Shown: positions 15,206-59,445 of the stretch, one piece after another | Numbering within the stretch: position 1 is the stretch's first letter | Layout: each line of letters starts with the position of its first letter | Virus genome (UHGV): UHGV-1351279 | Source: a virus | Reading direction: 5' to 3' (one strand) | DNA: 64,000 nt | Program-made: the position numbers and the translations under genes | Notes under the pieces: generated by a model | The model's input: the letters and a program-made list of their open reading frames with translations, nothing else | What the model was told of the DNA's origin: nothing | Database searches by the model: none

Positions 15206-18200
15206 TGAGTACTTGTAAAGTAGAATTTAAAGGTTTTAATATTGATTCAAGTAGTTTAGATAACTACTTGAATCAATTTACCATTGATGGTAAACAAAAG
15301 ATAGATGGGGCTAAAAACACCATAAGCTATTTATTAAGTAATGCAAAAGACAATAAGTTAGGAGTACTTAAACTTGCTCTTAACTCTAATAAAGCATACA
15401 TTAAAGATTTAGCTAATATGATGCTTAATACTAATAGAAAATTCTATGCTGAGGTAGAGATAAACAACAACCTTAAAGGGTTTTCTAAGTATAATGCTAA
15501 TGACAATAAAATCTATATCAATGTAGATGCTATATCACAGAGGTTTTCTGAAAGTGCAGAGGAATATTTGTATGAAAGAATAGTTCATGACTTTATACAA
15601 GGATTTGCAAATAGAGAGCTAAAAAAAGCATATGAAGATGCTAATAGAGACTCTCCTTATATGAAGAATATAATCAACTTGTTTAAAGAATATTCAAAGA
15701 GTGTAGACCTTAAGGAATATAATGTATTCAAGGATAGTGTAAATAAAGAACCTTTGTTGGACCCAAGAAGTGAAAGAAGTCTTATAAGAGAGGGTTATGC
15801 TGAAGAGACTTACAGAGCTATTACTAATCCTGCTGAGTTCTTATCTTATGGTTTGTCTAATAGTGAGTTTAGAAATACACTGAGAAAGCAAAACTTATGG
15901 CAAAAGTTTGTTTCTTTGTTAAAAGACCTTTTAGGTATATCTCAAGATAATAATGACTTAGAGTACCTTTATAAAAACTTAGATAGTTATTTAAAACAAG
16001 ATGACCCTTATACATTACATAGTGGAGGTGCAATTGGAGCTGATACTGTTTGGGGCCAGATAGGTAAACAATTTGGTATATCAGAAGAAAATCAAAGACA
16101 TTATAAAACTGCTGATATGCCTAATGGTAATACTCAAATAACTGAGCAAGATTATAGAGAAGGTAGAAAAGAAGCAGCTAAAGCAGCTAATAGAATGTTT
16201 GGTTATGACAAAACTGAAGTAAACATGGGTTTGCTTATAAGAAATTGGTCTCAAGTAAAATATTCTGAAGCTGTATATGCTGTTGGAAGATTAGTTCCAG
16301 CTGGAGAGAATGCTTTTCCTGATAATAAAAAAGAAGATACAAGAATTGCAAAAAACCCTACTGTAACAGGAGGTACAGGTTATGCTGTAAATATGGCTAT
16401 TCTTAATAATAAACCTGTGTATGTATATAATCAGTATGACAATCCAACTTACCCAAAAGGTTGGTATAAATATGATTCTAATATAAATGATTATGTACCT
16501 ACAGAGACACCTACACTTACAAGACACTTTGCTGGTATAGGTACAAGAAATATCAATGAAGATGGTGAAAAAGCTATTCAAGATACTTATGAAAAAACTT
16601 TCAATAAAAAACAACAAACAGGTTCTCAGAGTAGTACAGATAGTAATATAAAAGTAGAACAACAAAATAGATATTCTGTACAAGATGTGAGAAATAATCC
16701 TGACAAAATATTTGTATTTGGTGATAACTCCATAAGACAAGGTACAGGAGGTCAAGCTCAAATAAGAAATGAGCCTAATGCAGTTGGTATAATGACTAAA
16801 AAGTTTCCAAGAAATACACCTGATGCCTTTTTATATGATAGTGAATATGCAGAAAATATTAAGAGAATAAATGAAGATATAGAGAACTTAAAGCAAAAAG
16901 TAAAAGGTAAAACTGTAGTTTTTCCTACAGATGGTATTGGTACTAATTTAGCTGATATAGCTCATACAGCACCAAGAACTATGGAGTATCTTATAAATAG
17001 ATTAAGAGAAGAGTTTGGACTAAAAGATTCAGACCCTTTTATAAAATCTATGCTTAATAAACTAAATGAAGCAAGAAATGGTTTTGGACAAAAAATGCTT
17101 ATAGATGGAGAAATTTATTCATATAATGTAGATAAATTAAAAGCTTATAAACACACATTTGTTGGTTCAGGTATAAATGCTAAACAAAATGCTACTGAAG
17201 TTACTGACCCTAATTTAATAAAAAAAATATCTGATAAGTATTTTGAAACAGATAATAATAATAATAATGAAAGTAATACATCCGATAAAGTAGATGATAT
17301 ATTAAATGAGTTTGAGTTTTTAAAAACAAATGACCCAGAGCAAAGTAAAGAAGTTGAGATATTAGAACCTTTTGGAGTGTTTCCAAAAAATACAGGTTTC
17401 CTAATTGTACATACTCCAAGCGCAAAAGGTAATACTGTTGTTAGAATAAAAACAAAAGATGGTAAATACTATCAGTATGAAATAGTTAAAGTTGGTGCTG
17501 GTGAATCAGTTTCTGTTTTTAAGTTTGACAAAGAGGGTGATAGATATGTAAAAAAATCTTTAGAATTAAATGAAAAAAACTCTTTCATTAAAAGCTTTGT
17601 AATAAAATTTGTTGGAATAAGTAATGAGCAAGCAAACAGAGAGGATATAAAAAGTATCTTTACAAAAGCTTTAGCATTTTTGACTAATAAATCTAAGAAT
17701 AAAGAAGGGTATAGAGAGCTACTCAATAATGAGTTTGTAAAGAGTGACTTGCTACACATACATAATGTAAATTTACAAGACACAATAGCACAAATTAATT
17801 CATTAAAAGCTGATGATAAAGTTGAAGTTGATAGGATTAATTATCTTTTAGATTATCTTACAAATGATTTAAATAACAACGATAAAATATGGTATTTTGG
17901 TAGGTATGCTGAAAATGATTTATTTGGTCTTTTAGTTAATGAAGAAAAACTTACAAAACTTTCATCAGAAGATGCACTCTTAAAGTATGAAGAACTTAAA
18001 CAGCTATTATCAAGAAAATTTAAAGAGCTTGTATATGATTACAATGGTGATGTAAAAAAATGGCTATTTTCTTTATTAGATGAAAAAGAATTAGATGGTG
18101 ATTTACTGAACAAGTTAAGAGAGTTGAGAGGTGATGAAGAAACAATAACTCCTACACAACCTACACCTCCTCCAGCACCAAAAGAACGTTATGGAGAAGA

Positions 18201-20601
18201 ATTTCAAGTAGACCAATTTGTATTTTCTTATAATCCTGAGACAGGTAAGTACTATCAGCATTTTAAATCTAAAAAAGGAGAAGTAAAAGAACTTACTAAT
18301 GAAAAGCAACAAAACAAAACTTTTTTAAAGTACATAGAAAAACACCCTGAGCATGCTGAAATAGTAACTTATGAAAATACAGGTAATAAATATGTTTATG
18401 ATAAGAAAAGAGATAAAGTAATATCTTTATCTACAGCAGACACCATAGTTCAACCTGATATTGTTGATAAAGTAAAAAACCATGAAAAATACGCAAGGGA
18501 AGAAAAGATAGAAGGTTTAAAGAAATACATAAAACAATATTTAAAAGATTTCAAGGATATGTCTTTTGCAAGACTTTATCAATTATTGATTAATCAAGGT
18601 ACTATAACTCATGAAGATGCACATGATTTTTCTGAAGCTTTTAATCAAGCTCAACAAGAAATAAATGAAGAAAAAAATACAAGAGTCTATAAATTAAAAA
18701 GCCAACTCCCCAGTGATGTATTAGAGTATTTAAAAAATACAATAAGTGAGTACTATGATAAAAATGATAGCAAAGATGTAAACACTATCTACAGAGATTT
18801 TATGAAATCCCGTGAAGGTAAGAATGGAGGTTTTATATTTGATGTACATGGTTTGGGTAGTTTTAATATACATAATGATATATTTACAGAGCTTTTTAAA
18901 GAAATAAAAAAAGAAAAAGAGCTTGAAAAAGAAGCTAAAAAACCCCCTCAATATGAACACTCATTTTCTTACAAAGGTATAACAATACCTACTAAATTTC
19001 AATTATCAGAAGAGCAAGAACAGGCTCTTATAACTCTTATAGAAAATATTACAAGTGGAGATACAGAACCTATAACTTTAAGTGGCTATGCTGGTACTGG
19101 CAAAACTTCTGTGATAGGATATTTGGAAGATTATTTAAAAAGGAAAAGAGGTTATAAATTTCTTTATGGCGCACCTACACATGCTGCTACACTATATTTA
19201 GGTTATAACACTAAGAAAATGCCTTTTACAATTGCTTCTTCTGTTGTAAAAAGAATAGATGATTTTGGTAATGTAACTTACACAACATCTTCAAAAGTTG
19301 ACCAAGCATTATCAGACTACGACCAGAATATCTTTGTAGTAGATGAAGTTTCTCTAATGGATTCAACCACTATGGATAATTTCCTTTCTGTAATGGATAG
19401 AAAAGGTGTAAAAGTTATATTCATGGGGGATAAAATGCAATTACCTGAAGTAGCATCTAAAGGAAAAATAAACCCTGAAACAAAAAATTCTATAAAAGAT
19501 GTTTCTAAGGCTTTTACTGATTTTAAATTAATACAATTATCTCAAGTACAAAGAACAAAAGATAACTCAATTTTGAGGGTTCTAACAGAGATTAGGAATA
19601 ATCCTGATGGTGTATTACCTGTTGTAGATAATACAGAGACTCTACAGTTTTTTAATAAAGATGATAACACTAAAGGTTTTTACAAAGGGTTTAGAACAGC
19701 TTATGAAGCAGACCCTGAAGAAGCTATTTATATTACTTATACCAATGAAGATGTAAAGAACTTCAATAAATCTTTTAGAAAAGCTTTTTATGGTGAAGAT
19801 GTAGATGGCTTAGTTGAAGGTGAATCTGTAATAGGATACTCTGGTTACAACAATAAAAAGATTAAGTCAAATGACTTAGCAAACAGTATAAAATACACTG
19901 TAGATGATATTAGTTATGATGGTTCTGAAGTAAAAATAACATTAAAATCTAATGCTATACAAAAATTAGCTGATTTGCATTCACCAAATAGAGAGAATGA
20001 TAAAACTGTACAAACTACTTATTTACAGATGTCCAGAACAGACTCTTTAGATATGAAAAATCTTACAGATAAAGATTTTTTAAAGAATAATAGTAAACTA
20101 TCTGAAATATTTAGAGATGTCTATGATTTGAAGAAGATGGCTTTAGGAACAAACAGATGGAAAGATTTTAGTGAGACACTTGCTAAGATTACAGGGGGAC
20201 TTGCTAAATTAGAGATTGGAGATGATTATTTCTACAATCCATATACAAATATGATGGAAAAAGAAAGCTCTGTAAATTGGTCTAATCCTCAAATGGCTAA
20301 TCTAAAAAAGAATTATAAAGAGCTTTTTATGAGTAAGAGTATTGACTATGGTTATGGTATAACTATACATAAAGCACAAGGAGCTACTTATAAGAATGTA
20401 TTCTTTAATTCTACATCAACGGAATTTGCTAAAACAGAAATCCATGAAAATGGAATGCAAATAAGTACAGAAGGTAACTCTCTTAACTATGTAGCTATGT
20501 CAAGAGCAAGTGAGAAACTTTTTGTTCTTCACTCTAATAATATAAAAAGATTAAACAATGATGACTCTATAGAGTTGTCAAAAAATTGCAGTGTATTCTA
20601 A
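15205..20601 (+). CDS. giant virion cargo protein with C-terminal Dda/RecD-like SF1 helicase domain (~18964-20601)
   Basis: ATG at 15205 overlaps the upstream TAA (TAATG coupling); the track start at 15199 is TTG. Walker A GYAGTGKTS at ~19085-19111. Motif-VI-like ITIHKAQGATY. Collinear ~50-65% aa identity with the standalone helicase at 28684..30255. Gly-rich Rossmann-like motifs HSGGAIGAD (~16021-16060) and FGDNSIRQGTGGQA (~16711-16760). Confidence 0.6.
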   Translation: MSTCKVEFKGFNIDSSSLDNYLNQFTIDGKQKIDGAKNTISYLLSNAKDNKLGVLKLALNSNKAYIKDLANMMLNTNRKFYAEVEINNNLKGFSKYNANDNKIYINVDAISQRFSESAEEYLYERIVHDFIQGFANRELKKAYEDANRDSPYMKNIINLFKEYSKSVDLKEYNVFKDSVNKEPLLDPRSERSLIREGYAEETYRAITNPAEFLSYGLSNSEFRNTLRKQNLWQKFVSLLKDLLGISQDNNDLEYLYKNLDSYLKQDDPYTLHSGGAIGADTVWGQIGKQFGISEENQRHYKTADMPNGNTQITEQDYREGRKEAAKAANRMFGYDKTEVNMGLLIRNWSQVKYSEAVYAVGRLVPAGENAFPDNKKEDTRIAKNPTVTGGTGYAVNMAILNNKPVYVYNQYDNPTYPKGWYKYDSNINDYVPTETPTLTRHFAGIGTRNINEDGEKAIQDTYEKTFNKKQQTGSQSSTDSNIKVEQQNRYSVQDVRNNPDKIFVFGDNSIRQGTGGQAQIRNEPNAVGIMTKKFPRNTPDAFLYDSEYAENIKRINEDIENLKQKVKGKTVVFPTDGIGTNLADIAHTAPRTMEYLINRLREEFGLKDSDPFIKSMLNKLNEARNGFGQKMLIDGEIYSYNVDKLKAYKHTFVGSGINAKQNATEVTDPNLIKKISDKYFETDNNNNNESNTSDKVDDILNEFEFLKTNDPEQSKEVEILEPFGVFPKNTGFLIVHTPSAKGNTVVRIKTKDGKYYQYEIVKVGAGESVSVFKFDKEGDRYVKKSLELNEKNSFIKSFVIKFVGISNEQANREDIKSIFTKALAFLTNKSKNKEGYRELLNNEFVKSDLLHIHNVNLQDTIAQINSLKADDKVEVDRINYLLDYLTNDLNNNDKIWYFGRYAENDLFGLLVNEEKLTKLSSEDALLKYEELKQLLSRKFKELVYDYNGDVKKWLFSLLDEKELDGDLLNKLRELRGDEETITPTQPTPPPAPKERYGEEFQVDQFVFSYNPETGKYYQHFKSKKGEVKELTNEKQQNKTFLKYIEKHPEHAEIVTYENTGNKYVYDKKRDKVISLSTADTIVQPDIVDKVKNHEKYAREEKIEGLKKYIKQYLKDFKDMSFARLYQLLINQGTITHEDAHDFSEAFNQAQQEINEEKNTRVYKLKSQLPSDVLEYLKNTISEYYDKNDSKDVNTIYRDFMKSREGKNGGFIFDVHGLGSFNIHNDIFTELFKEIKKEKELEKEAKKPPQYEHSFSYKGITIPTKFQLSEEQEQALITLIENITSGDTEPITLSGYAGTGKTSVIGYLEDYLKRKRGYKFLYGAPTHAATLYLGYNTKKMPFTIASSVVKRIDDFGNVTYTTSSKVDQALSDYDQNIFVVDEVSLMDSTTMDNFLSVMDRKGVKVIFMGDKMQLPEVASKGKINPETKNSIKDVSKAFTDFKLIQLSQVQRTKDNSILRVLTEIRNNPDGVLPVVDNTETLQFFNKDDNTKGFYKGFRTAYEADPEEAIYITYTNEDVKNFNKSFRKAFYGEDVDGLVEGESVIGYSGYNNKKIKSNDLANSIKYTVDDISYDGSEVKITLKSNAIQKLADLHSPNRENDKTVQTTYLQMSRTDSLDMKNLTDKDFLKNNSKLSEIFRDVYDLKKMALGTNRWKDFSETLAKITGGLAKLEIGDDYFYNPYTNMMEKESSVNWSNPQMANLKKNYKELFMSKSIDYGYGITIHKAQGATYKNVFFNSTSTEFAKTEIHENGMQISTEGNSLNYVAMSRASEKLFVLHSNNIKRLNNDDSIELSKNCSVF

Positions 20602-20612
20602 AATAAAATAAT

Positions 20613-23600
20613 ATGTCTTGTAAAAATACAGTCTTAAACAGTAATAGTAGAAATGTAGTGATGAAAGGTCTTTATGAAAAAGACCTTATCACTGCCTATA
20701 AGAATGTTGGTAATACAACAATAATACAAGTATCTAACATTAAGGATTTCAATAAAAGGAATCAACTTTTAATAGATAAAATACAGGAATTACAACCTCA
20801 ATTTTTATCTTCTTTTGGAAGTATGTATAACACCACTCCAACAGAATTATTCTTTGATAAAGTAAATGGTAGTCAAGAACAATTTGCTATAAAGAATTAT
20901 ATGTTTGAAAGGCTATCTAACTTTAAAATGGTAGATTTTAATAAGCTACAAGAAACTTTAGATAGCTTAGGTAAAATAGCTGTACAAGTATCAAATGGTA
21001 ATATAGAAATTAGAAACCATAAAATACACGGTTTTACTAAAGAAGAAGTAGATGCTATAGTAAAAAAGTATAATACACTTTCTTCTGAAAAACAACAATA
21101 CATAAAAGATGAAATTAGAAATAGTAGAAATATTGTAGATAAAGTAGCTTCAAAACTTTATGATGCTTATGAAGATAGACTTAACCTAATTACTGATATT
21201 GATTCAAATTCAATGAGAATAGGTAATAAAAACTCTAATAATATTATTAAAGTAAAATCTAAGGAAGTTGAATCTAATAGAGAGCTTCAAGAAATAAAAG
21301 ATGAAGTAGCTAATAATAAAGCTAAGGAACTTACAAGAAAAAACACTGAGGATAGCAATAAAAGGAGTAATGATTATAATACTGATGGTGATATATTGCC
21401 TTCAAATGATAATTGGGACTCAAACTCTGACCCTAATATTACACCTCCTGTAACAGATAATTATACAGAATATACAAATTACTTAGATGCACTACTAAAA
21501 AGTGTACAGAAAAAGAAAGGTGAGTTAATAAAAGAACTCAAAAATCCAAAAAACAAGAATAAAACTAAGACTATTGATGACCTAAATAAGCTAATAACTG
21601 AAGAGGGTAAATTACAAGAGTACTATAATAATGCTATATCTGGTGAAAATGAGAAAAATGTAGAGACATTATTTAATGAATTAGATGATTTGTCTCATAA
21701 ACTTGATGTAATAGATAGTGGTAGCATAAAGAATCTTGGAGATAGGGTTGATTTCCTTTTTGGATTTATTACAGGTACAAAATATGGAAGCAATGAAAAT
21801 GTTGATTATGCAATAAGTGAGAATCCTGAACTTAGGTCTAAGGTACTTTCTCTAATGCATAAATATAATAGTAAGCTCAATGAAATATCTAATAAAATCA
21901 TTGAAGAAGATGTTACTTATCAACATAATGTACTTAATAATATTGCATTTAAAAGAGCTGATGGTAAAATAGACAAAGATAAGGTAAATGATTTATTTAA
22001 AGTAAAAGATGATATAAACTTTTTTGAGAAAGCCCTTTTAGGGGTATCTCAAGCAAGTACTAAAGAATCTATTACTCCTCAAATATTAAAGTCATACCTT
22101 GAAAAAAATATGTCTCATAGGACATCTGAAGCTATTGCTTATAAGGATAGATTATTAGCTGCTATTGAGAAATTAGAAGCAAAAGGTATTACTGATTTTA
22201 GCTTTATATTTGAGAAATTTTTATCAGGAGCAAGAACAGGTAATATCATTAGTAAATATACTTCTGAGTATAGGAGAAAGCTTTATAAATACTTTAATAT
22301 GGAAGTTGAGGGTAATGACTATGCTTCTTATTATAGTAAGAAAATACAATGGCTAAAGGCTAATGCTGATGTTATAGACTTTAGAAAAATAAAGGCTTTT
22401 AAAGACCTTTATGGTAAGAACTATCCTAATGAATTTATCTTCTCTGACCAGGAAATGGAAGAATATGAAAATAATCTTAGAAAACAACTTGGTAAAGTGT
22501 ATGATAAAGAGATAGACAAAGTAAATAGTTGGATAGAAAATTATGAGCTTACTAAGCAAAATTATGAATCTAAATATGAAGCAGAGAGAAATAACCCTTT
22601 TGTATTTCTAAGGTCTTATTTTGGAGATTCTCCAACTACAGCAGCTGCATTTAATGGTACAGGAGGTATATCAAGTATATTTCCTAACCTTAATGATATT
22701 GTATTTGTACCAAGAAAAACCTTTACTGAGGGCTATGACTTTAATGGAGAAGAAATAACCTCTGATACAGGCTATTATAATAAAGACTTTGATAGAATTG
22801 AACAGTCTGATGAAATGTTTGAGTATTGGTCTGTATTAGAAGATATATATTCTCAATACATAAATCCTACCTATGACATATCAGGAATGAGCTTTGCTAA
22901 GATACAAAAGGAGTTTCTCGAAAAAGTAAGTGATGCAAAAGGTGCTTCTAAAGCAGGTACTCTAATATCTAAAGGTATACAAGCTTATAGAGAGTATTTC
23001 TATGAAGTAGGTGTAGGTAATAAGAAAGATAAAGGTATTGTAGAGAACTATTCTGATAAGACAAAACAAGAAATAAAGGCTCTATCATCAGCTCTAAAAG
23101 CTAAATCTGTTGATGAGCTTAAATCTATGGCAAAAGATTTAGGTCTTACTATACCTAATAACATAACACCAGAGCAATTAGTTCATGAGATTGCAAGTGA
23201 AATGACTTTAAGGAATTATTCTTCTGATATTAATAAGATAACAGGGGCTTTAATTGATATGGTAGCTTTACAAAAAGCCAGAGAAGATACTTTACCTATA
23301 GCTAATATCTTACTTGAGAAACATAAGAAAACTGTAGGAGAAAGTGAAAGGGAGAGAAAAAATAGTATTGAGAAATTAGAACACTATATCAATAAAGTAA
23401 TTAAGAATGAGCATGAGCATGCAAGAGGTACAGAACAACTAATAGGTAAAGAGATTAAAACACCTGGTTGGATAGAGATGTTACTTGATAAATTAGGTGT
23501 TATAGGTTGGCTTAAAAATAAAGTAGAAAAGAATAGGTTCTTTTACCTTTATAGTGATTCAGAAAGACAATTATTAAAAGAACTCCAGAGTGCAAGAGAA

Positions 23601-25625
23601 AGAGGTCATAACTCTAATATTAGTGATAGTTTCTATCAAGATGGTATGAGATATGAACTTATAGTGGATGAGCATGGGGGTACATATTTTGCAAGCTATA
23701 AAGATAAGCACACAGGAGAAGATAAAATAATTGATATAACTCCTGAGCAATATGAAGAAGCTTATCAAAAGAATATAGAAAGTAAGATACAAAGTTTGGG
23801 TCTTGACTTAAATAGTGCTGGTATTATTCAAGGAATACTAAAAACTATCATTTTTAAAGGATTAGGACTTAACCCTATTGGAGGTATCAGAAACAGGATG
23901 GAAGGTAAAAATACCAACCTTATAATGGATATGACAGGGTATTACTGGACTAAAGGTAATATTAGACATGCTCATAATTTCTTAGCCTTTGCTAATATGT
24001 TGCATATTTTACCTGATAGGATTTCTCCTGAACACATGGGTAAATACAAACAACTAAAAATCTTTAGGTCTTTAGTAGAGAAGATGAGGATTGTTCAAGA
24101 TAGAAAAAACCCTTTAGAGAGAAATATTGAGCAGTCTAAGTTCTCTATGGAGAAATATACTAATGTTTTTTCTTGGGCTGTAGATAACCCTGAGTTTAAG
24201 AACCAGGGTTCTGTGGTTCTTGCTATACTAATGGATACTAAGATAGAGAACAATAAAGGGGAATTAGTACCTATATTTGATGGTTCTAAATTTACTGTAT
24301 TTGAAGAAACTAAAGATGGTTCCTTAAGATTAAAAGAAGAGTTTAGGTCCGAAGAGAATATAAGGAATTGGGAAAATATGGAGGTAGGATTTAATGAAGA
24401 GGATAATAACCAATTCTTTCTAACAAGAAATAAAATGAAGACAGCCATATCAAGAACACAAGGTAACTATGATGATATGGATACTATTTGGGCTTCAAGA
24501 ACTATATGGGGTCAAGTTCTAATGATGTTTAAAAAATGGATGCCAGAACACTTTATGCAGAGATTTGCATCAGGACAGAATTTTGACTTATTTACAGGAA
24601 AGAAACAAATGATGGGTAGATACAGAGCTATGTGGAATAATAATCCTGCATTGGCTGTAACAGGACTTTCCTCTATATTAGTAGGATTAGGTTTAGGAGC
24701 TGGAGCTTTAACTGTAGGAGGTATTACAGGAGTTGTAGCTTTTAAGTTTATACATAATATGATGGGAGGAAATAAAGGTATCTTAGAAGAAGCTAATAAT
24801 ATAGGAGGATTAGTAGCTTTTACTAAGTCAATACTTATTAGTACTCTTAATTACCCTTTAGAGCTTATCAATCTAAAGACAGGTATTCCAACAAAATATG
24901 ATGGATATTCTAAATTAAATCTTACTGAAGAGGAAATAGGTACTTTAAGGTCTTTAGCTAAAGAAATAGCTGTAAAACTAACCTGGTTAAGTATAATGTT
25001 ACTTGCTAAATCTCTTACTTGGGATGATGATGATGATGATGACTCAGATAAAAGGAAGTTACATAATTTCTTAGATAATGAGCTTAATACAACTATTAAT
25101 ACATTACAATCCTGGTCAGACCCAGGTGCTTTATATGATGATGCATCAAGAAGCTCTTTTCTTTTATATTGTGATAATGTAACAAAACTATTAAAGAGTA
25201 TTATGTTACTCAATGGAGGGGATGCTTCAAAATATGCTTTAAAGGTATCTCCTGTACCATCTTTCTTTACACACATGGTATCTAAAGATGGTGATTTACT
25301 AATGCCTTGGCAAAATGATTATGAATATGATAAAGGTAAAACTTATTGGGATGGATTTATAAAAGAAATAAAAGGTAGAGGACATGAAAAATGGTCTAAG
25401 AAAGAATACAATAAAATAAGAAAAGAGAAAAAAGCTGAAATGTTAGAACAAGGTATGAGTGAAAAAGAGATTAAAGAAGCTCTTGGTACTAAACCAAAAG
25501 GAATGTCCTATGTAGATGCTTTAGATTATATGGAAAATGGAGGATTACCTCCACAAGAACCTAAGAAAAAAGGTAGACCTAAAGGTAGTAAAAACAAGAA
25601 AAAAGAGGATTCAGCTCAAAAGTAA
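20613..25625 (+). CDS. giant virion cargo protein, 1670 aa, with TM helices, poly-Asp run and C-terminal AT-hook
   Basis: Hydrophobic Gly-rich helices ALAVTGLSSILVGLGLGAGALTVGGITGVVAF (~24650-24760). DDDDDDD at 25023-25043. C-terminal KKGRPKGSKNKKK (GRP core AT-hook) ~25566-25604. Confidence 0.5.
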   Translation: MSCKNTVLNSNSRNVVMKGLYEKDLITAYKNVGNTTIIQVSNIKDFNKRNQLLIDKIQELQPQFLSSFGSMYNTTPTELFFDKVNGSQEQFAIKNYMFERLSNFKMVDFNKLQETLDSLGKIAVQVSNGNIEIRNHKIHGFTKEEVDAIVKKYNTLSSEKQQYIKDEIRNSRNIVDKVASKLYDAYEDRLNLITDIDSNSMRIGNKNSNNIIKVKSKEVESNRELQEIKDEVANNKAKELTRKNTEDSNKRSNDYNTDGDILPSNDNWDSNSDPNITPPVTDNYTEYTNYLDALLKSVQKKKGELIKELKNPKNKNKTKTIDDLNKLITEEGKLQEYYNNAISGENEKNVETLFNELDDLSHKLDVIDSGSIKNLGDRVDFLFGFITGTKYGSNENVDYAISENPELRSKVLSLMHKYNSKLNEISNKIIEEDVTYQHNVLNNIAFKRADGKIDKDKVNDLFKVKDDINFFEKALLGVSQASTKESITPQILKSYLEKNMSHRTSEAIAYKDRLLAAIEKLEAKGITDFSFIFEKFLSGARTGNIISKYTSEYRRKLYKYFNMEVEGNDYASYYSKKIQWLKANADVIDFRKIKAFKDLYGKNYPNEFIFSDQEMEEYENNLRKQLGKVYDKEIDKVNSWIENYELTKQNYESKYEAERNNPFVFLRSYFGDSPTTAAAFNGTGGISSIFPNLNDIVFVPRKTFTEGYDFNGEEITSDTGYYNKDFDRIEQSDEMFEYWSVLEDIYSQYINPTYDISGMSFAKIQKEFLEKVSDAKGASKAGTLISKGIQAYREYFYEVGVGNKKDKGIVENYSDKTKQEIKALSSALKAKSVDELKSMAKDLGLTIPNNITPEQLVHEIASEMTLRNYSSDINKITGALIDMVALQKAREDTLPIANILLEKHKKTVGESERERKNSIEKLEHYINKVIKNEHEHARGTEQLIGKEIKTPGWIEMLLDKLGVIGWLKNKVEKNRFFYLYSDSERQLLKELQSARERGHNSNISDSFYQDGMRYELIVDEHGGTYFASYKDKHTGEDKIIDITPEQYEEAYQKNIESKIQSLGLDLNSAGIIQGILKTIIFKGLGLNPIGGIRNRMEGKNTNLIMDMTGYYWTKGNIRHAHNFLAFANMLHILPDRISPEHMGKYKQLKIFRSLVEKMRIVQDRKNPLERNIEQSKFSMEKYTNVFSWAVDNPEFKNQGSVVLAILMDTKIENNKGELVPIFDGSKFTVFEETKDGSLRLKEEFRSEENIRNWENMEVGFNEEDNNQFFLTRNKMKTAISRTQGNYDDMDTIWASRTIWGQVLMMFKKWMPEHFMQRFASGQNFDLFTGKKQMMGRYRAMWNNNPALAVTGLSSILVGLGLGAGALTVGGITGVVAFKFIHNMMGGNKGILEEANNIGGLVAFTKSILISTLNYPLELINLKTGIPTKYDGYSKLNLTEEEIGTLRSLAKEIAVKLTWLSIMLLAKSLTWDDDDDDDSDKRKLHNFLDNELNTTINTLQSWSDPGALYDDASRSSFLLYCDNVTKLLKSIMLLNGGDASKYALKVSPVPSFFTHMVSKDGDLLMPWQNDYEYDKGKTYWDGFIKEIKGRGHEKWSKKEYNKIRKEKKAEMLEQGMSEKEIKEALGTKPKGMSYVDALDYMENGGLPPQEPKKKGRPKGSKNKKKEDSAQK

Positions 25626-43850: not shown

Positions 43851-44162
43851 TTACGCAAATCTTGTAGGACCTCCATATACAAAAGTATTAGAAGGTACTT
43901 CTTCTACACTTTGTTGAGCTAAAGCTTCTACTTCAGCTTGAGGTTCTGGAATGTCTTGTTCTCCTTCAGGATTAATAACTTCAGGTTCTTCTTCAATAAC
44001 CCAAAGAGGTTTCCTGAATTTCCTAATCTCAAGACCTAAAGTCTTTAGGACATTTTTCATCTGAGCTACAGGCAATCCATAATGCTCTGCAAGCTCTTTC
44101 ATTTTCATGCCATTGTCAATTTGTTCTTTAAGAACACTTGGCTTGATTTTAACTTGTTCCAT
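43851..44162 (-). CDS. small HTH-type DNA-binding protein
   Basis: MKELAEHYGLPVAQMKNVLKTLGL is a helix-turn-helix-like segment followed by an acidic C-terminus. Confidence 0.35.
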   Translation of the reverse strand: MEQVKIKPSVLKEQIDNGMKMKELAEHYGLPVAQMKNVLKTLGLEIRKFRKPLWVIEEEPEVINPEGEQDIPEPQAEVEALAQQSVEEVPSNTFVYGGPTRFA

Positions 44163-45295
44163 TACTTTAAAGTATTAATATAATTATATATTCTGTTTAA
44201 TTCATTTACTTCAGTAGGTTTAGGTAATTCTGAGAAGTAGTCTACAGCTCCTAAGAAGAATAAAGGTACTTGTACTCCAGCTTCACCATCTCTTGATTTA
44301 AGTATCTGCATAGCTCTGTAATGATTCTTTAGTTTTGTAATGTCATATCCTCCATGATTTGTTATTTTATATCTATAAGGAGCAAATAATGTCAATACAT
44401 AAGAAGCATCTCTTGTACAGGTTTTAGAGTCACCAAAGCTTGAAATTGAGGGAGTTAGCTTTTCTTCAATAGATTTTCCAGCTACATTATATTGTACTGT
44501 CTCAGCATCTAAAGCAAGCTGTTGTACTCCAACTACAGTAAATCCAAACTTATCTCTAAGCCTTAGAGCATACTTAGAAGAGAATAAATCAATAGCACTC
44601 TTTAAACTTTCTCCTTTTTCACCACTTAAAAGATTATAATTATCTACAATAACTATAACATAATGATTTGGGTGATAAGTTTTATAGTACTTTACTTTAG
44701 AGAAAGCTGTTCCAACACCTTTTCTTATGTTCTCAACCTCTTCTTTTGTAAGAGGTTTATCATTTTTATCATAATAAGTACCTATGCTTAGAGCAAAGTC
44801 CCTACATTTCTTGAATATACCTGTAGGATTAGTAATATGAGTTATGATATGTACTTTTTCTAAGAATTTATTTATATGTTCCTTAGCTTCTTCTACATAC
44901 TTTATAATCTCATTAGATACAGTATTCAATCTTCCAATAGATTGTAAGTCTTTTACACTTACTATTTTCTTGTACTTATGAAATATGTATCTTGAAATCT
45001 CACTCATAATTACTTTTTCTTCACTCTCCTCTAAAGAGAAATCAAGAATATCAACTTTTATGTCCTCTTGAGTACTCTCTATATAAGATAGGACGTTATG
45101 AATAAAGAAGTACCTTACAAACTTAGATTTACCTATAGAAGTTCCTGCACCTACTAAATAATAAGAAGCTTTCTCAACACCTGGAAGATAACTTTCTAAT
45201 CTCTCAAATCCTGCAAAAGGAATACAGTTATAATTTCCTTTATCATGGTTTTGTTTGTTAGTTTTTATCTTCTCTAATACTGTTTCAAAATTCAT
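44162..45295 (-). CDS. DnaB-family (SF4) replicative helicase, RecA-like C-terminal domain
   Basis: IPFAGFERLESYLPGVEKASYYLVGAGTSIGKSKF matches the DnaB C-domain signature (GFxxLD...GxxxxxLxxxAxxxxxGKS/T). Walker B IVIVDNYNLL. Confidence 0.55.
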   Translation of the reverse strand: MNFETVLEKIKTNKQNHDKGNYNCIPFAGFERLESYLPGVEKASYYLVGAGTSIGKSKFVRYFFIHNVLSYIESTQEDIKVDILDFSLEESEEKVIMSEISRYIFHKYKKIVSVKDLQSIGRLNTVSNEIIKYVEEAKEHINKFLEKVHIITHITNPTGIFKKCRDFALSIGTYYDKNDKPLTKEEVENIRKGVGTAFSKVKYYKTYHPNHYVIVIVDNYNLLSGEKGESLKSAIDLFSSKYALRLRDKFGFTVVGVQQLALDAETVQYNVAGKSIEEKLTPSISSFGDSKTCTRDASYVLTLFAPYRYKITNHGGYDITKLKNHYRAMQILKSRDGEAGVQVPLFFLGAVDYFSELPKPTEVNELNRIYNYINTLK

Positions 45296-46392
45296 TATTC
45301 TACAATTTTATTTACATCTACATCTTCTAAAAACTTCTTTGTCCATAACTCATCTACAGTATCTTTGAGATAAAGGATATAAACATTAAGTATTTTACCT
45401 TGCCTTTTAAGTAATCCTCTACTAAGTTTTTGATAAGAATACCCTTGATTGTTACTATCACATTGAATAATTACTACATTGTCAATATCCTTATAAGTAA
45501 CACCAACAGTACCTGTCTTAACCAAAGAAAGTTGGTTTATTTTACCTTCTTGAAAGGCTTTTAAATCTTTGTCAGAAGTCTTACTATTATAAGAAGGATA
45601 ACCTAATAGTTTAGCTTGTTCTGTATTGGAACAAAATATTAGAGTTCTTTCTTCCTTTTTTAGAGATTGTAGTAAAGATAAAGCAGCAAAAAGCTTAGTA
45701 GGAGCATTGTAAATCAAATGCATTCTTGAGGTGTATAAGAACTTATTTATAGGCAAATGAACCTTTTTTTTGTACTCAATTACACTGGTAAGGTAACAAT
45801 ACTTCTCAAACTCTGTTTGCATAAATTTCCTACCTTTTAAGCCTGATTCAATGAGTTTATCTTTACTGTTGAGTTCTAAAGGAATAAGTTTTATCTGATA
45901 ATCACTAATAATGTCTGTATTAATAGCGTCATTAATAGACATTTCTACTAAAGTTGAGAATTTGAGTTTCTCTAAAAGCTCTCTTTTATCTTTATGTTTG
46001 CTTGGGGTTCCTGTAAGTCCTAATATTGTTTCTACTTTTAAATCCCCTGTGAATAAACCTACAGAATTATTAGGTGAGAATGATTGTATCTCATCTAAAA
46101 CCATAAAGTCATAAGCTCCTCTTTCTTTGTGTAGTGAGTTATAGCAAATAAATTTAGTTACCTTTAAAAGCTCTTCTGCACTCCATTTTTTAAACTCTTC
46201 AGGTGTTCCTTTATCTCTAAGCTCTTTATTAGGAGTAACCCATAAAATAGACTTGAAATTATGTTTTTTCATTATCTCTATGGCAAGTTTAGTTTTACCT
46301 ACCCTCATACCAACAAGAATGAGTTGATTTTTTCCAATCTCAAATTTATTTAGGGCTTCTTCTAATATTAATTGTCTTGGGTCTCTATCCAT
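45295..46392 (-). CDS. SF2 helicase (SNF2/DEAD-like)
   Basis: Walker A MRVGKTKLA, DExQ box MVLDEIQSF, motif III LGLTGTP. Confidence 0.55.
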   Translation of the reverse strand: MDRDPRQLILEEALNKFEIGKNQLILVGMRVGKTKLAIEIMKKHNFKSILWVTPNKELRDKGTPEEFKKWSAEELLKVTKFICYNSLHKERGAYDFMVLDEIQSFSPNNSVGLFTGDLKVETILGLTGTPSKHKDKRELLEKLKFSTLVEMSINDAINTDIISDYQIKLIPLELNSKDKLIESGLKGRKFMQTEFEKYCYLTSVIEYKKKVHLPINKFLYTSRMHLIYNAPTKLFAALSLLQSLKKEERTLIFCSNTEQAKLLGYPSYNSKTSDKDLKAFQEGKINQLSLVKTGTVGVTYKDIDNVVIIQCDSNNQGYSYQKLSRGLLKRQGKILNVYILYLKDTVDELWTKKFLEDVDVNKIVE

Positions 46393-48195: not shown

Positions 48196-49290
48196 TTAAA
48201 TATCTTTTAATTCAACATTATCCTCTACATATTGTCTTAGACTTATAAAACCCCTTAATTGTTTATTGTATCCGTGTGTTTCTTTAGGAATTGCAACTAT
48301 ATAGTCTTCTCTTTCTATTTTACCTTTAATCCAGCTTCTATATTCATCATCAGTCATACACTTAGCTATATGTCCAAAGCAACTCCAATGTCCTGAGTTT
48401 TTAAGTTTCTCATACATTTCTTGAGCTTTTTCTGATGTAATAGAGTTTTCATCACCAATCTTAGTATAAGATATTTTTGCGGTAAGACAAACTGATTTCT
48501 TAATCATATCAGCAAAAAAACCAAATTCTTTTCCATTAAGAATTTCTTTAGCAAATGGTATATGCCAACAATCCTCTTTTAAAATATTAGGAGTAGACTC
48601 ATTAAGAGCATCATACATTTTCTCAGCTAAGTCCATAAAGTGGATTTCTGCTTGTCCTGAATTACACTGTAACCACTCCAAATCTGTCATATCTTTTAAG
48701 TGTGGAAATAATCCTATGGCATCTTTCTTTGAGGTGAATTTTAGGTTTTCTACATTGTAAATAGGACATCTTTGTTCAAACAAATGCTCAAAAGATTCTC
48801 TTGTACCTGTACAAAGTTGTGTGACCCACATCCAAGGTTCCAATAACCTATTACCATAGTTTTTAGATAATGAAGTATTAGGTACAAAACCTGTTGCATG
48901 TTTAATTTCAATATCAAGAATTTTTTCATCTATTGTATCTAAAACTTCACCTACAATTATTTTTGCAGATGTAACAGCTTTGTCCCTTGCTCTTAACCAT
49001 GTTTTATTTTTTATTTCTATGTGTTTAGGGTCTGTAAGATATTTATCACCTTGCATACCTTTGTGTTCCAACATCCAGGCAATAGGCACAAAAGGCTCTT
49101 TCTCTACTACTTCAACCATTTTCTCAAATGGTATAGCACGAGATGAGCTTGTATTCTTCTCTAACATCTTATAGGTATTAACTTCACTAAGAATAATACG
49201 AGGAAAAGTTAGTTTGTAGGTGATTATCTCATCACCTGTTCCAGCTCTTTTACTATGAGCTATAATTTCTGCTTTGATGTTATTCTTCAT
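48196..49290 (-). CDS. hypothetical protein (364 aa)
   Basis: Large ORF in a nucleotide-metabolism-like position. ThyX RHR / SxR motifs were looked for and not found. Confidence 0.4.
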   Translation of the reverse strand: MKNNIKAEIIAHSKRAGTGDEIITYKLTFPRIILSEVNTYKMLEKNTSSSRAIPFEKMVEVVEKEPFVPIAWMLEHKGMQGDKYLTDPKHIEIKNKTWLRARDKAVTSAKIIVGEVLDTIDEKILDIEIKHATGFVPNTSLSKNYGNRLLEPWMWVTQLCTGTRESFEHLFEQRCPIYNVENLKFTSKKDAIGLFPHLKDMTDLEWLQCNSGQAEIHFMDLAEKMYDALNESTPNILKEDCWHIPFAKEILNGKEFGFFADMIKKSVCLTAKISYTKIGDENSITSEKAQEMYEKLKNSGHWSCFGHIAKCMTDDEYRSWIKGKIEREDYIVAIPKETHGYNKQLRGFISLRQYVEDNVELKDI

Positions 49291-56189: not shown

Positions 56190-56440
56190 ATACTATCAAT
56201 TATATTTTTTACTAATTTATCTGTGTTCTCTGAGAGTTTCTTGGATATTATCTTTAGTATATCTAATGACAAATCTTCATCTACACAAAGTGTAAAAGAC
56301 TCTCCTATTTCATTGAAGAAAGATACTTTACCTTCATACCTATCTTTTTGTTTTTCTTCTTCTTTTTCAAAAGAGTAACCTTTTTTAAATTCTAATGAAA
56401 ACTCTTTTATTCTAAAATTCTTATTCATAATTAATGACAT
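56186..56440 (-). CDS. hypothetical small protein
   Basis: 84-aa ORF overlapping the polymerase start. Confidence 0.35.
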   Translation of the reverse strand: MSLIMNKNFRIKEFSLEFKKGYSFEKEEEKQKDRYEGKVSFFNEIGESFTLCVDEDLSLDILKIISKKLSENTDKLVKNIIDSI

Positions 56441-59400
56441 TCTGCATAATTAACTCCAAAGTCTGCACTTATATCCATTGGTATTGAAAACTTTATTTTA
56501 TCATTTACTTTTGAAATACACTCTTTTAGATATTTTAATATACTATCTTTAGAGATATTATTATTAAAATAACATAAGTACTCATCATGTATCTGAAGCA
56601 TTACTGTATTTACTCTTTTTCTTACTTCTTGTAAGTAACAATCAAAAACAAATACAGCAGTACTTTGATTTAGTGATGAAAATATATCTTTAAAATACCT
56701 AAGTGAAATCCAAAAGTTACTTACAGGATTAAGTATATACATAGTATTTACAGTTTGTAAAAAACTGTTTTGTAATTTTTGACACCTTTTCTTTTCTTTC
56801 TTACTATTGTCTTTAGGTAAAAAATCTACTGTCTTATATACTTTTACTTCCCCTGTTTTGTGTATTACTTTCAATAAGAGGTCTTTCTCTACATCTAACA
56901 CAGATTTATTCATAGTCCAATAACCATCTAATATAGTCTCTGCTTCTTCTTTTGTACAATCTAAGTTTTTAGCTAATGTTGGAGCTCCAACTTTATATAC
57001 AGAAGAATTTCCTGTTATAACTACTAAATCATTTTGTTTTGCAATAAAAGTTTTATTTTTATTGTTTACACAAAACACATCTGTATACCTACTAAAATCT
57101 TTTTTTAGTTTTTGACCTGTTATGTTTCTCCTATTTCTTATAAAGACATCAACACAAACATTATTTTTATAAACTTTTCCTTTTGATAATTTGTAAAAGT
57201 ACCCATTTAAAGTTAAAGCTAAACAAAAAGCATCTAATATTTTACCCTTATTTTGAGTAAATATCTTTTGACCCTCTTTTTTATGACCATCTCCTTTTAA
57301 CATGTGTATTATGAACTCTTCTCTTATGTCATGTGGTATGTTTATTATAAGGTTAGTGTAATCTATGTCTTTTTTATTTCTTTCAGGTAAATTAAGTCTG
57401 TAAAACAAACTTCTTATTTCTGATGGTGATAGGTCATAGTAAGTAAGTCCATCTTTTCTTGTATAAGTTCTGTATTTATAATTATTCAATACTTTTTCTA
57501 AATCTTCTTTGTTACTTTTTTGACCTATTTTACATATAACATGTCTTTTTTTACCATTAGAATTAGATGTACCATTTAATTTATCAGACCATTCTACATA
57601 ACCTTCTGTTAGAATCCAAGCTAAAAGCCTTATATCTTCAACATTGTAATCTCTGTTTGTGTTTTTATAAGGTGCTGAAACAATTATTTTATCATTTTTG
57701 TTTATATCTTTTGTTTCAACAAAAACGTTTTTATAATATGTTTCCTTGTTTTTTGATGTTATTTTTTTAGAAGAAAACCATTTATGGTTTGGTGTACATT
57801 CAAAAGAAAAATGACTATTATGTAAGCTTATAACTTCTTGTTTTTCAAAATAGGGTATAGAGTCTATTTTTACAACTTCTAATTCATTTAATTCTGTATT
57901 ATAAGAAAAAATGCAATCATCTAATTTTAGTTGCTCATATTTTTTCCAACCCTCTGTTGTTAAAATTTCTGTTATATCAGTTGGCAAACAAAAATTTACT
58001 ATTTTAGCCTTATTTCTCATAGTTTTTAATTCTAAAAATTCTTTTTTTTCATCTTCATTTTTTTCTTCTTTTTTATCTAATTCTTTATATCTATTAGCTT
58101 GTTTTTCACTCATTAAACCTGAAAATTTTGCAATTTCAATATGTGCATCATATCCTGGAACTCTTTTTTTATTTACATAATCAGGGTCAAATTTGTACAT
58201 ATAATTATCTTGAGTTGTTGCTTCAGCTGCTGATAAGTCAGAACCACACAGTATAGTATTTTCTTTAGGAGAAAGAATTAAACCTCTAATCTCTTTACCA
58301 TAAAAGGTATTTGGTTTAGGTAAATTACTAATAGGTTTTCTGTGTAGAAATCTAAAGGTATTTGATAAACCTCCAGCAGTAGCATAAACACAATTATTCT
58401 TGTCCATACTTTCCATAAAAGACTTAAACACTCCTATCCTATGAGTTATTAAAGAAAGGTCATTAAACAGCTCTATTTCTGGTACTATTTCTATTAATTT
58501 TTTTACAGAATTACATATTTTACCATTATCATCATAAATCTGTTCTACCTCTTTTTTAGTACCTTTTTTCTTATCTTTTACTGTTTTATAAGTACAAGGT
58601 ATCCAACCTAATGAGTAAAACCATTTTTTTACCTGGTCTACACTTCCTGGATTAGGTTCTTCCTCTTCACATATTAAAGTAACTATTCCTTCATAATCTT
58701 CAGGTAATTCTTGTTCTTGTAAAATAGCTAACCACTTTTTACCTGCTTCACTCAAAGAACCATCTTTCTTAGTCATTTTATTGGGTTTAGTTACCTCTTT
58801 GTATTTATATACTTTAGGCATTATTCCTTTTAAAATTTCTACTTTTTCATTATAGATTGTTTCAAGCTCATCTAAAGATTTGTAAAGTAATTTCGTATCT
58901 ACTTTTATCTTTACTTCTTCTTGCTCTCTTAGACAATCCATTTTGAAGTTTAAATAGTTAATGATTCTTTCTTTATCCTCCTGTTTAGAATATAGTTTAT
59001 GAAGAAAAATTATTTGATTGTGAAATAATCTCTGATTAATCTCAACATCTTCACTGCACCTGTGAATATATTCCTCAATAGTTAGATTACTCCAATCAGA
59101 TATTTTAGGTTTAGGTACTCCAAATTCTTCTCCAAAGGATTCTAATCCATGAGATTTTCTCCCTATATATAAATACCATGATAATCCCATAGTATCTATA
59201 ATTTTAAGCTCCTTTGGCTTTTTCCAACCTAATAATTTTTTTAATACAGGTAAATCAAATCTTAGAATGTTATGCCCAATTAATGTTTCTTGTTTATCTA
59301 AAAAGGTGATAATATCATTAGGATTCACTAAAGCTCCCTTTTCTAATAAAATACCTTTTTCATAAATTTGATAACAAAAACAATGTAGTTTTGTTACCTC

Positions 59401-59445
59401 ATCTAATAAGCCATCACACTCCAAATCAAATATTGTGTAACTCAT
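56431..59445 (-). CDS. family-A DNA polymerase with 3'-5' proofreading exonuclease, interrupted by an intein
   Basis: Exo I IFDLECDGL, Exo II-like HNILRFDLPVL, motif A CGSDLSAAE (DxSxxE), motif B RNKAKIVNF//SVYKVGAPTLAKNL split by an insertion, motif C LQIHDEY. Confidence 0.65.
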   Translation of the reverse strand: MSYTIFDLECDGLLDEVTKLHCFCYQIYEKGILLEKGALVNPNDIITFLDKQETLIGHNILRFDLPVLKKLLGWKKPKELKIIDTMGLSWYLYIGRKSHGLESFGEEFGVPKPKISDWSNLTIEEYIHRCSEDVEINQRLFHNQIIFLHKLYSKQEDKERIINYLNFKMDCLREQEEVKIKVDTKLLYKSLDELETIYNEKVEILKGIMPKVYKYKEVTKPNKMTKKDGSLSEAGKKWLAILQEQELPEDYEGIVTLICEEEEPNPGSVDQVKKWFYSLGWIPCTYKTVKDKKKGTKKEVEQIYDDNGKICNSVKKLIEIVPEIELFNDLSLITHRIGVFKSFMESMDKNNCVYATAGGLSNTFRFLHRKPISNLPKPNTFYGKEIRGLILSPKENTILCGSDLSAAEATTQDNYMYKFDPDYVNKKRVPGYDAHIEIAKFSGLMSEKQANRYKELDKKEEKNEDEKKEFLELKTMRNKAKIVNFCLPTDITEILTTEGWKKYEQLKLDDCIFSYNTELNELEVVKIDSIPYFEKQEVISLHNSHFSFECTPNHKWFSSKKITSKNKETYYKNVFVETKDINKNDKIIVSAPYKNTNRDYNVEDIRLLAWILTEGYVEWSDKLNGTSNSNGKKRHVICKIGQKSNKEDLEKVLNNYKYRTYTRKDGLTYYDLSPSEIRSLFYRLNLPERNKKDIDYTNLIINIPHDIREEFIIHMLKGDGHKKEGQKIFTQNKGKILDAFCLALTLNGYFYKLSKGKVYKNNVCVDVFIRNRRNITGQKLKKDFSRYTDVFCVNNKNKTFIAKQNDLVVITGNSSVYKVGAPTLAKNLDCTKEEAETILDGYWTMNKSVLDVEKDLLLKVIHKTGEVKVYKTVDFLPKDNSKKEKKRCQKLQNSFLQTVNTMYILNPVSNFWISLRYFKDIFSSLNQSTAVFVFDCYLQEVRKRVNTVMLQIHDEYLCYFNNNISKDSILKYLKECISKVNDKIKFSIPMDISADFGVNYAECH
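57007..57990 (-). mobile_element. intein (328 aa) with LAGLIDADG-type homing endonuclease inserted in Pol A motif B
   Basis: Begins with Cys (CLPTDITEIL, block A). Has the block B TxxH (ECTPNHKWF). LAGLIDADG-like LLAWILTEGY and MLKGDGHK. Ends VVITGN followed by extein Ser. Flanking exteins reconstitute the KxxNF-GxxYG-like motif B. Confidence 0.55.

Follow-up and report, generated by a model that had tools for sequence, protein, structure and literature searches.

What is a segment of 328 amino acids doing in the middle of motif B of a phage DNA polymerase? The segment lies in the viral genome UHGV-1351279, of which one stretch of 64,000 nucleotides was analysed (the window, to which all coordinates refer), and occupies positions 57007..57990 on the minus strand. 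A first, sequence-only reading of the window had taken it for an intein with a LAGLIDADG homing endonuclease, inserted into a family A polymerase. The analysis described here upholds that call with high confidence: the insert is a bona fide, probably active, bifunctional intein, in which a HINT splicing domain carries a nested, double-motif LAGLIDADG endonuclease. The host protein is the replicative family A polymerase of a phage that is AT-rich, has a genome of ~97 kb and has been seen in metagenomes only. The element itself is a class 1-type phage intein that carries a LAGLIDADG domain. It belongs to the Bethlehem gp51-like family, which combines Cys1, a cysteine at the fourth position of block F (Cys F:4) and a Thr-Gly-Asn end, and it sits at a hot spot in the O-helix of PolA. 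The gene product would comprise a polymerase of 676 residues and a mobile element of 328 residues, and polymerase maturation in this phage lineage would depend on splicing.

The Interrupted Polymerase Gene

The precursor is encoded by an open reading frame (ORF) of 1004 codons (56431..59445, minus strand), the sole long ORF spanning the interval 57007-57990. Translation of this interval on the plus strand meets many stops, and the feature is therefore assigned to the minus strand. ORF residues 486-813 correspond exactly to window positions 57990..57007; they begin with CLPTDITEIL, end with VVITGN, follow directly on RNKAKIVNF and are followed by SSVYKVGAPTLAKNL. The N-extein (residues 1-485; 57991..59445, minus strand) contains a 3'-5' exonuclease domain with the motif DLECDG, then polymerase motif A (GSDLSAAE), and terminates in RNKAKIVNF, the N-terminal half of motif B (57991-58017, minus strand). 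The C-extein (residues 814-1004 and the stop codon; 56431..57006, minus strand) opens with the +1 nucleophile Ser814, with which SSVYK, the C-terminal half of motif B (56992-57006, minus strand), also begins, and includes motif C, QIHDEY (56578-56595, minus strand).

Motifs A, B and C of family A polymerases are thus all found, and the latter two align with the Klenow fragment: HMMER places MRNKAKIVNFSSVYKVGAPTLAKNL against Klenow motif B and QIHDE against QVHDE. On the established numbering of the Pol I O-helix (R754, K758, F762, Y766), the junction falls in the middle of this helix, between the equivalents of F762 and G763, and removal of the insert restores the motif B pattern R-x3-K-x3-F-x3-Y. 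From end to end, the spliced protein of 676 residues shares 33-39% identity with annotated phage DNA polymerases, the lowest E value being 1e-137. The Pfam polymerase model PF00476 scores 29.9 bits on the interrupted precursor, under its cut-off of 34.3, and is precomputed for the orthologs and for P0003, a near-identical protein of 1004 residues from a 97-kb ENA contig that has Ala, not Ser, at residue 2. The identity of the host protein as a family A polymerase and of the site as motif B, both asserted in the sequence-only reading, are supported by these alignments.

Orthologs whose site is empty permit a direct comparison. The ortholog search, in which the query was the 676-residue polymerase left after removal of the 328 residues, retrieved P0004 (676 residues, 93% identical) and P0005 (677 residues, 84% identical), both colinear with the query and both without exactly residues 486-813. 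The site reads ...GKAKTVNF|ASVYKVGA... in the two orthologs and ...NKAKIVNF[328 residues]SSVYKVGA... here; in P0004, and likewise in P0005, ...KAKTVNF is joined to ASVYKVGAPTLAKNLDCTKEE, and in the present protein ...KAKIVNF is separated by the 328 residues from SSVYKVGAPTLAKNLDCTKEE. Excision is clean to the residue, as the sequence-only reading had anticipated, and the sole change at the junction is the replacement of Ala by Ser at +1, which supplies the nucleophile. Among 120 listed polymerase relatives the insert, recognized as ~320 extra residues, is present in five (P0003, P0016, P0031, P0036, and P0087), a sporadic distribution. Because the insert is sporadic and exactly missing from close orthologs, a conserved polymerase subdomain, the alternative that had been raised together with the intein, is dismissed.

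Architecture and Fold of the Insert

The intein extends from Cys1 to Asn328 (57007..57990, minus strand), a delimitation that draws on the orthologs, HMMER searches, residue conservation, an AlphaFold2 model, and Foldseek comparisons. Its HINT domain is split in two. The N-terminal part (intein residues 1-105; 57676..57990, minus strand), placed by the family profile, the model and conservation, includes Cys1 in block A and T66-P-N-H69-K-W71 in block B (57778-57795, minus strand). The C-terminal part (residues 293-328; 57007..57114, minus strand), placed by profile and conservation, includes the codon of Cys307, the F:4 residue (57070-57072, minus strand), and the block G terminus T326-G327-N328 (57007-57015, minus strand). 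Between them lies the LAGLIDADG homing endonuclease domain (residues 106-292; 57115..57675, minus strand), assigned by Foldseek, profile and conservation, with RLLAWILTEG as motif 1 (acidic residue E129; 57601-57630, minus strand) and FIIHMLKGDG as motif 2 (acidic residue D234; 57286-57315, minus strand). The motifs that the sequence-only reading had quoted, ECTPNHKWF, LLAWILTEGY, IIHMLKGDG, and a terminal GN before Ser, are all found in the ORF, a result that goes well beyond chance.

A word-indexed homolog search with the intein returned 2 proteins only; exhaustive HMMER searching with the 328 residues returned 1898 cluster representatives (50% clustering) at E ≤ 1e-3 and 552 at E ≤ 1e-10, and these matches mostly cover residues 1-328 end to end, within larger proteins. 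In deposited phages, tblastn recovered full-length homologs in the PolA of Phapecoctavirus (33% identity, E 2e-44), of Pseudomonas phages KIL1-5 and of Vibrio phages, and within the portal protein of Gordonia phage Woes, the record of which is annotated "contains intein." A search of the window for a second copy of the family returned none.

A profile built from 29 family sequences matches several inteins and one endonuclease of known structure in the PDB: the Spl DnaX mini-intein (E 1.4e-6), the TliVMA intein (E 1.4e-5, with an alignment that runs through the endonuclease domain), the AceL NrdHF intein (E 2.7e-5), the NrdJ-1 intein (E 2.4e-3), I-DmoI (E 7.7e-3), and the gp41-1 intein (E 8.4e-3). 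It aligns residues 1-105 to the Spl DnaX, AceL NrdHF and gp41-1 inteins and also matches PI-PkoII. The AlphaFold2 model, computed from the same 29-sequence alignment, has a predicted local distance difference test (pLDDT) value of 94.9 and a predicted template modelling score (pTM) of 0.92. It displays β-strands over residues 7-103 and helices at 117-129 and 220-234, which end in E129-G130 and D234-G235. In Foldseek against the PDB the model finds the TliVMA intein first (E 7e-16), followed by PI-SceI, PhoVMA, PI-PfuI and PI-PkoII, and then I-DmoI (E ~5e-6; template modelling [TM] score 0.62-0.66 on the target). As modelled, the insert contains a HINT fold, and its central domain is predicted to adopt the pseudo-dimeric α-β-β-α-β-β-α fold of LAGLIDADG enzymes with two motifs. 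The Pfam family LAGLIDADG_3 matches 11 of the 29 family members, and the endonuclease assignment of the earlier reading is upheld. The only match of a single-sequence phmmer search of the intein against the PDB was a capsid protein, which was judged to be due to chance.

Catalytic Residues and the Gly-Asn End

Conservation was counted in 138 full-length family members aligned with MAFFT, 137 of them from databases. Cys1, Cys F:4 (C307) and the block B histidine B:10 (H69) are invariant (138/138). Nearly so are Thr at B:7 (T66), Trp at B:12 (W71) and Gly at G:6 (G327), each in 136 of 138 sequences. The terminal Asn at G:7 (N328) is found in 134, with Gln in the other 4, and Thr at G:5 (T326) in 126, with Ser in 10. 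Among the 137 database members, 55 have Cys at +1, 47 have Ser and 35 have Thr. The present intein has the complete class 1 set, namely Cys1 (Cys486 of the ORF), T66-P-N-H69 and N328 followed by S814. The register of B:12 was verified against the published numbering of the AceL NrdHF intein (S65 = B:7, M70 = B:12) and that of F:4 against the TliVMA intein, in which the Asp of the block F sequence VYD aligns with Cys307. In the endonuclease domain, positions 129 and 234 are each occupied by Asp or Glu in 136 of 138 members, and Q157, R193, Q246, N247, and G249, conserved in 86-99% of the family, are retained here; on these residues the endonuclease looks intact.

A penultimate histidine is common in inteins but not obligatory. 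The sequence-only reading had regarded the Gly-Asn end as less common and worth checking. The end itself is real (Gly327-Asn328), but since Thr-Gly-Asn is near-invariant across the family it is no oddity; it is a hallmark of the family and not a defect of this copy. The penultimate His is also poorly conserved among mycobacteriophage inteins, and in the Bethlehem gp51 intein, where the penultimate residue is Gly, splicing is complete and the substitution G316H slows it (Kelley et al., 2016; PMC5050341). Escaping the earlier reading was a second feature of the same alignment: the triplet Trp B:12, Cys F:4 and Thr G:5 is near-invariant in the family. As judged from the alignment, the residue set of the family is thus the class 1 set together with the Trp-Cys-Thr (WCT) triplet of class 3 inteins.

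Proposed Splicing and Homing

The analysis shows the boundaries of the insert, the orthologs with an empty site, the fold, the conservation of residues, the membership in the family and the divergent flank; that the protein splices, that it cuts DNA and in which order the reactions run is inferred as follows. In the class 1 pathway the precursor of 1004 residues would fold first. Cys1, aided by Thr66 and His69, would then turn the Phe485-Cys486 peptide bond into a thioester, which Ser814 at +1 would attack to form a branched ester. Cyclization of Asn328 would free the intein, and an O-to-N acyl shift would join the exteins into RNKAKIVNF-SSVYKVG, leaving an intact dNTP-binding helix. The invariant Cys307 stands where standard inteins have the block F Asp with which they coordinate the two junctions. 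The freed intein, by means of E129 and D234, would cut intein-less alleles at ...GCTAAAACAGTAAATTTT|GCTTCTGTATATAAGG... during co-infection; this predicted target comes from L006, and the intein-free allele reads ...ATAAGAGGTAAAGCTAAAACAGTAAATTTT|GCTTCTGTATATAAGGTTGGAGCTCCAACA.... Repair from an intein-bearing genome would then copy the intein and flanking DNA into the cut allele.

Mobility and Flanking DNA

Members of the family interrupt PolA, DnaB, a PD-(D/E)XK nuclease, a metallophosphoesterase and a portal protein, to which a methylase-like protein (P0002, judged by its flanking sequence only) can be added. Occurrence in so many unrelated genes is typical of mobile elements. Within PolA the choice of site is narrow: 108 of 137 relatives (P0016-P0271) are inserted in the O-helix, in five adjacent registers that were assigned by a simple regular expression for the motif. 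The register after Pol I residue 763, where Cys is found at +1 (763|764), is the commonest, with 65 of the 137; 18 members, in the register of the present intein, are inserted after residue 762, 17 after 760, 6 after 764 and 2 after 759. The earlier description of motif B as an insertion hot spot was therefore apt. Between phage lineages the intein is better conserved than the exteins: when the present protein is compared with P0016, P0031, P0036, and P0087, identity is 61-74% in the intein and only 37-59% in the exteins.

The DNA directly 5' of the insertion carries a probable co-conversion tract, recognized by its divergence from intein-free alleles, of ~270 nucleotides of N-extein sequence (57991..58260, minus strand). 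Here 63 of 271 positions (23%) mismatch the P0004 gene, as against 81 of 1760 (4.6%) in the remaining gene (Fisher p 4.5e-21); outside the tract the spliced gene is 95-100% identical to that of P0004, and 98-100% immediately 3' of the site. In a three-way comparison with P0004 and P0005, the proximal ~170 nucleotides of the tract are unlike both intein-free alleles. The part from -254 to -194 (window region 58160-58260) is 95-98% identical to the P0005 gene (locus L007) and ~80% identical to that of P0004, which makes the polymerase gene mosaic in this region regardless of the presence of an intein. The divergent tract as a whole fits asymmetric co-conversion during homing, and the stretch shared with P0005 means that ordinary mosaic recombination contributes as well. 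P0016, P0031, P0036, and P0087 were rejected as donors of the tract, the last 80 residues of their N-exteins being just 48-50% identical.

An endonuclease-dead relative is found in P0001, a metagenome fragment from ENA (477 residues) whose intein (residues 76-321, 246 in length) is 54% identical to the present one. Deletions of 75 and 7 residues have removed both LAGLIDADG motifs, and all splicing blocks are kept. Its insertion lies one codon later (VNFS|C...GN|SVYG vs. VNF|C...GN|SSVYK here), with the same spacing after splicing (NFSSVY). Related polymerases include empty sites, full inteins and endonuclease-dead inteins, which is what the homing-cycle model predicts. Polymorphic in near-identical phages and bordered by a recombination scar, the intein lends itself to tracing co-infection and gene flow within this uncultured phage group.

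Alternative Readings

Several observations weigh against an active intein and have to be set beside the evidence above. Scanned with Pfam and NCBIfam, neither the insert nor the complete ORF matched an intein model; the comparison with intein hidden Markov models (HMMs) suggested by the sequence-only reading yields a false negative here. LAGLIDADG_3 reaches only E 0.2 on this copy, short of significance. The penultimate His is replaced by Gly327, and F:13 is Ile and not His. At ~25%, the G+C content of the intein is the same as that of its flanks (25-28% throughout the window), so composition is uninformative and gives no hint of recent import, and mosaic recombination could explain the part of the 5' tract that is shared with the intein-free P0005. 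That curated models fail to recognize the insert is the point in favour of the view that the 328 residues form a polymerase subdomain peculiar to this lineage, or an insertion that does not splice and is kept in the mature enzyme. Such a view would have to accommodate an element that is exactly missing from orthologs 93 and 84% identical, that would disrupt the O-helix between F762 and Y766, that has end-to-end homologs within unrelated proteins, and whose fold is that of intein endonucleases; its probability is negligible, and it is effectively refuted. Unlikely, but less remote, is that splicing works and the endonuclease is inactive, in which case the intein would be a passenger passed on by vertical descent, or would control polymerase maturation as a conditional switch, and would no longer be homing. 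Decay of this kind has occurred within the same lineage, in the 246-residue version of P0001, where the splicing blocks are intact and neither LAGLIDADG motif is left; the marginal LAGLIDADG_3 value and departures of the motifs from the family consensus (E for D at 129, K-G-D for L-A-E at 232-234) point the same way. In the present copy, by contrast, both metal-binding acids and the glycines that follow them are retained along with the five further conserved residues, and the domain is modelled at pLDDT >90 save for one loop. The better conservation of the intein than of the exteins between phage lineages, the divergent tract adjoining the insertion and the presence/absence polymorphism in polymerases 84-93% identical likewise argue for an endonuclease that is active.

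The order of nucleophiles raises a different question. Class 3 inteins are defined by the WCT triplet together with a residue 1 that is no nucleophile, and in them the nucleophile that starts splicing is Cys F:4 (Tori et al., 2010). Were the present intein to splice in this way, or by a hybrid of the two pathways, Cys307 would attack the N-terminal junction and form a branched thioester in block F, replacing Cys1 or relaying with it, before transfer to Ser+1. The near-invariance of the triplet invites this reading, the Ser at +1 agrees with the preference of class 3 for Ser or Thr, and of the 37 WCT inteins of Tori et al. (2010), 3 retain Ser1 or Cys1, with the mechanism left open. Against it stand the invariant Cys1 and the near-invariant Thr B:7, whereas class 3 inteins have a non-nucleophilic residue 1 and mostly no Thr at B:7, and the Cys at +1 in 55 of 137 members, which is almost unknown for class 3. 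Class 1 inteins with Cys F:4, moreover, are recognized as polyphyletic in a later paper from the laboratory of Tori et al. (PMC3196547), and the related Bethlehem gp51 intein is treated as class 1 by Kelley et al. (2016; PMC5050341). Taken as a crude proxy for affinity to the class 3 clade, the family profile gives E 1.9 against Msm DnaB1 (6bs8), compared with 2.7e-5 for AceL NrdHF and 1.4e-6 for the class 1 Spl DnaX mini-intein. Since the triplet occurs together with Cys1, Thr B:7 and frequent Cys+1, and with no special affinity to Msm DnaB1, the intein is filed as class 1-type with Cys F:4, and a class 3 or hybrid route is considered improbable. A related and equally doubtful suggestion, prompted by a residue set that the family keeps under strong purifying selection, is that the family may be a surviving form of the phage-borne progenitor that gave rise to class 3 inteins through loss of Cys1. 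If this were true, two nucleophiles of the family would be competent to start splicing, and they would be redundant or would work in relay (Cys1, then Cys F:4, then +1). The family would then be a natural intermediate and would bear on the argument against a direct derivation of class 3 from class 1 (Beyer et al., 2020; PMC7664689).

Relationship to Known Inteins

The closest relative on which experiments have been done is the Bethlehem gp51 intein (...NHD|CSWTN...TITANHRV...GEVWCLRV...KIHLTGN|SRAR). It is matched end to end by the family HMM (92 bits, model positions 4-332), and an experimentally studied member of the family therefore exists; a single-sequence phmmer comparison of the two inteins returned no match, as they have diverged too far. 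Both share Cys1, the block B T-x-x-H, Cys F:4 (within VWC in Bethlehem), Thr-Gly-Asn followed by Ser, and a double LAGLIDADG. They differ in the host, which in Bethlehem is a recombination directionality factor (RDF)/metallophosphoesterase and not PolA, and at B:12, where Bethlehem has Val instead of Trp. Endonuclease-related toxicity has been reported for the Bethlehem gp51 intein (Kelley et al., 2016; PMC5050341). A DnaB intein, as a class 3 comparator, was sought in the Bethlehem RefSeq stretch that was examined, and none was found.

Full-length homologs 25-33% identical (E 1e-14 to 2e-44) are carried by Phapecoctavirus (Escherichia phage nepoznato and its relatives), KIL1-5 and Woes. The inteins of nepoznato, KIL1, and Woes share with the present one the Cys start and an end in Thr-Gly-Asn followed by Cys or Ser. 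Those of Phapecoctavirus and KIL1-5 are also found in PolA motif B, that of Woes in a portal protein instead. The PolA inteins differ in register (after residue 763 in nepoznato, 759 in KIL1 and 762 here) and in the +1 residue, which is Cys in Phapecoctavirus and KIL1-5 and Ser here. In the library of papers searched, no description of PolA motif B inteins as a family was found.

Class 3 inteins (MP-Be DnaB, Msm/Mch DnaB1, AceL NrdHF) resemble the present one in Trp B:12, Cys F:4, Thr G:5, and Ser+1, and are likewise phage-associated and placed in nucleotide-binding motifs of replication proteins; unlike them, the present intein has an invariant Cys1, Thr B:7 and Gly at G:6, and its family often has Cys+1. 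PI-SceI/VMA, PI-PfuI, and PI-PkoII share the arrangement of a HINT domain with a nested LAGLIDADG endonuclease (E 7e-16 to 6e-9, query-normalised TM 0.54-0.68). By contrast, they are only 9-14% identical, have Asp at F:4 and His-Asn ends, are larger (360-540 residues) with extra DNA-recognition regions, and come from archaeal or yeast hosts.

The present intein is of a known kind with one studied relative, an ordinary addition to a large phage intein family and no discovery in itself. The sole feature that might repay experiments is the family-wide combination of class 1 and class 3 signatures. The family is large (the 1898 representatives), occupies five adjacent registers of the PolA helix and uniformly combines Cys1, the WCT triplet and a penultimate Gly, and so forms a convenient natural set for asking what Cys F:4 contributes to class 1 inteins and by what route class 3 came about. 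For annotation the consequence is practical: the element escapes the curated intein HMMs, so that pipelines will list a "DNA polymerase" that is too large. The NDNF and RbfA matches that appeared in the Pfam and NCBIfam scans were judged spurious.

Two of the phage loci present features of their own. In Vibrio phage VnaP (ON212104; locus L004, 2474-3544) the annotation breaks the polymerase up into five or more separate ORFs, and a distinct ORF corresponds to the intein homolog. This homolog has no Cys1, starting instead with MNDFGFGKETEILT, and its end, ...SIT|C, lacks Gly-Asn; it may have decayed, may be a free-standing derivative, or may reflect an assembly problem. In Pseudomonas phage KIL1 (NC_030934; locus L002, 737-3844) the PolA coding sequence is annotated as a two-piece join, though the intein homolog is in frame. 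The neighbouring primase/helicase coding sequence is also annotated as a join, and a gene for an HNH endonuclease lies between it and PolA.

Genomic Context

Among 50,697 deposited phage genomes no close relative of this phage was found; its relatives are metagenome contigs of 92-101 kb. Genome size and giant ORFs are reminiscent of crAss-like phages, a group with documented inteins; membership of this phage in that group is not claimed. On the minus strand of the window lies a replication module with a Dda-like helicase, an exonuclease, a primase, a DnaB-like helicase, and a thymidylate synthase. Two abutting minus-strand ORFs, 44162-45295 (377 residues) and 45295-46392 (365 residues), both match helicase PHROGs (DnaB-like replicative helicase and DNA helicase), and could represent a split or two-part helicase gene. 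In the ORF at 48196-49290 (minus strand, 364 residues) the match to thymidylate synthase covers residues 213-359 only and does not extend to the N-terminal 212 residues. The plus strand carries three consecutive giant ORFs, at 1679-15205 (4508 residues), 15199-20601 (1800 residues) and 20613-25625 (1670 residues). The only similarity seen for the last of these is a weak, partial match (25% identity) to proteins labelled hypothetical in Fpv1-like phages (~89 kb) of Flavobacterium psychrophilum.

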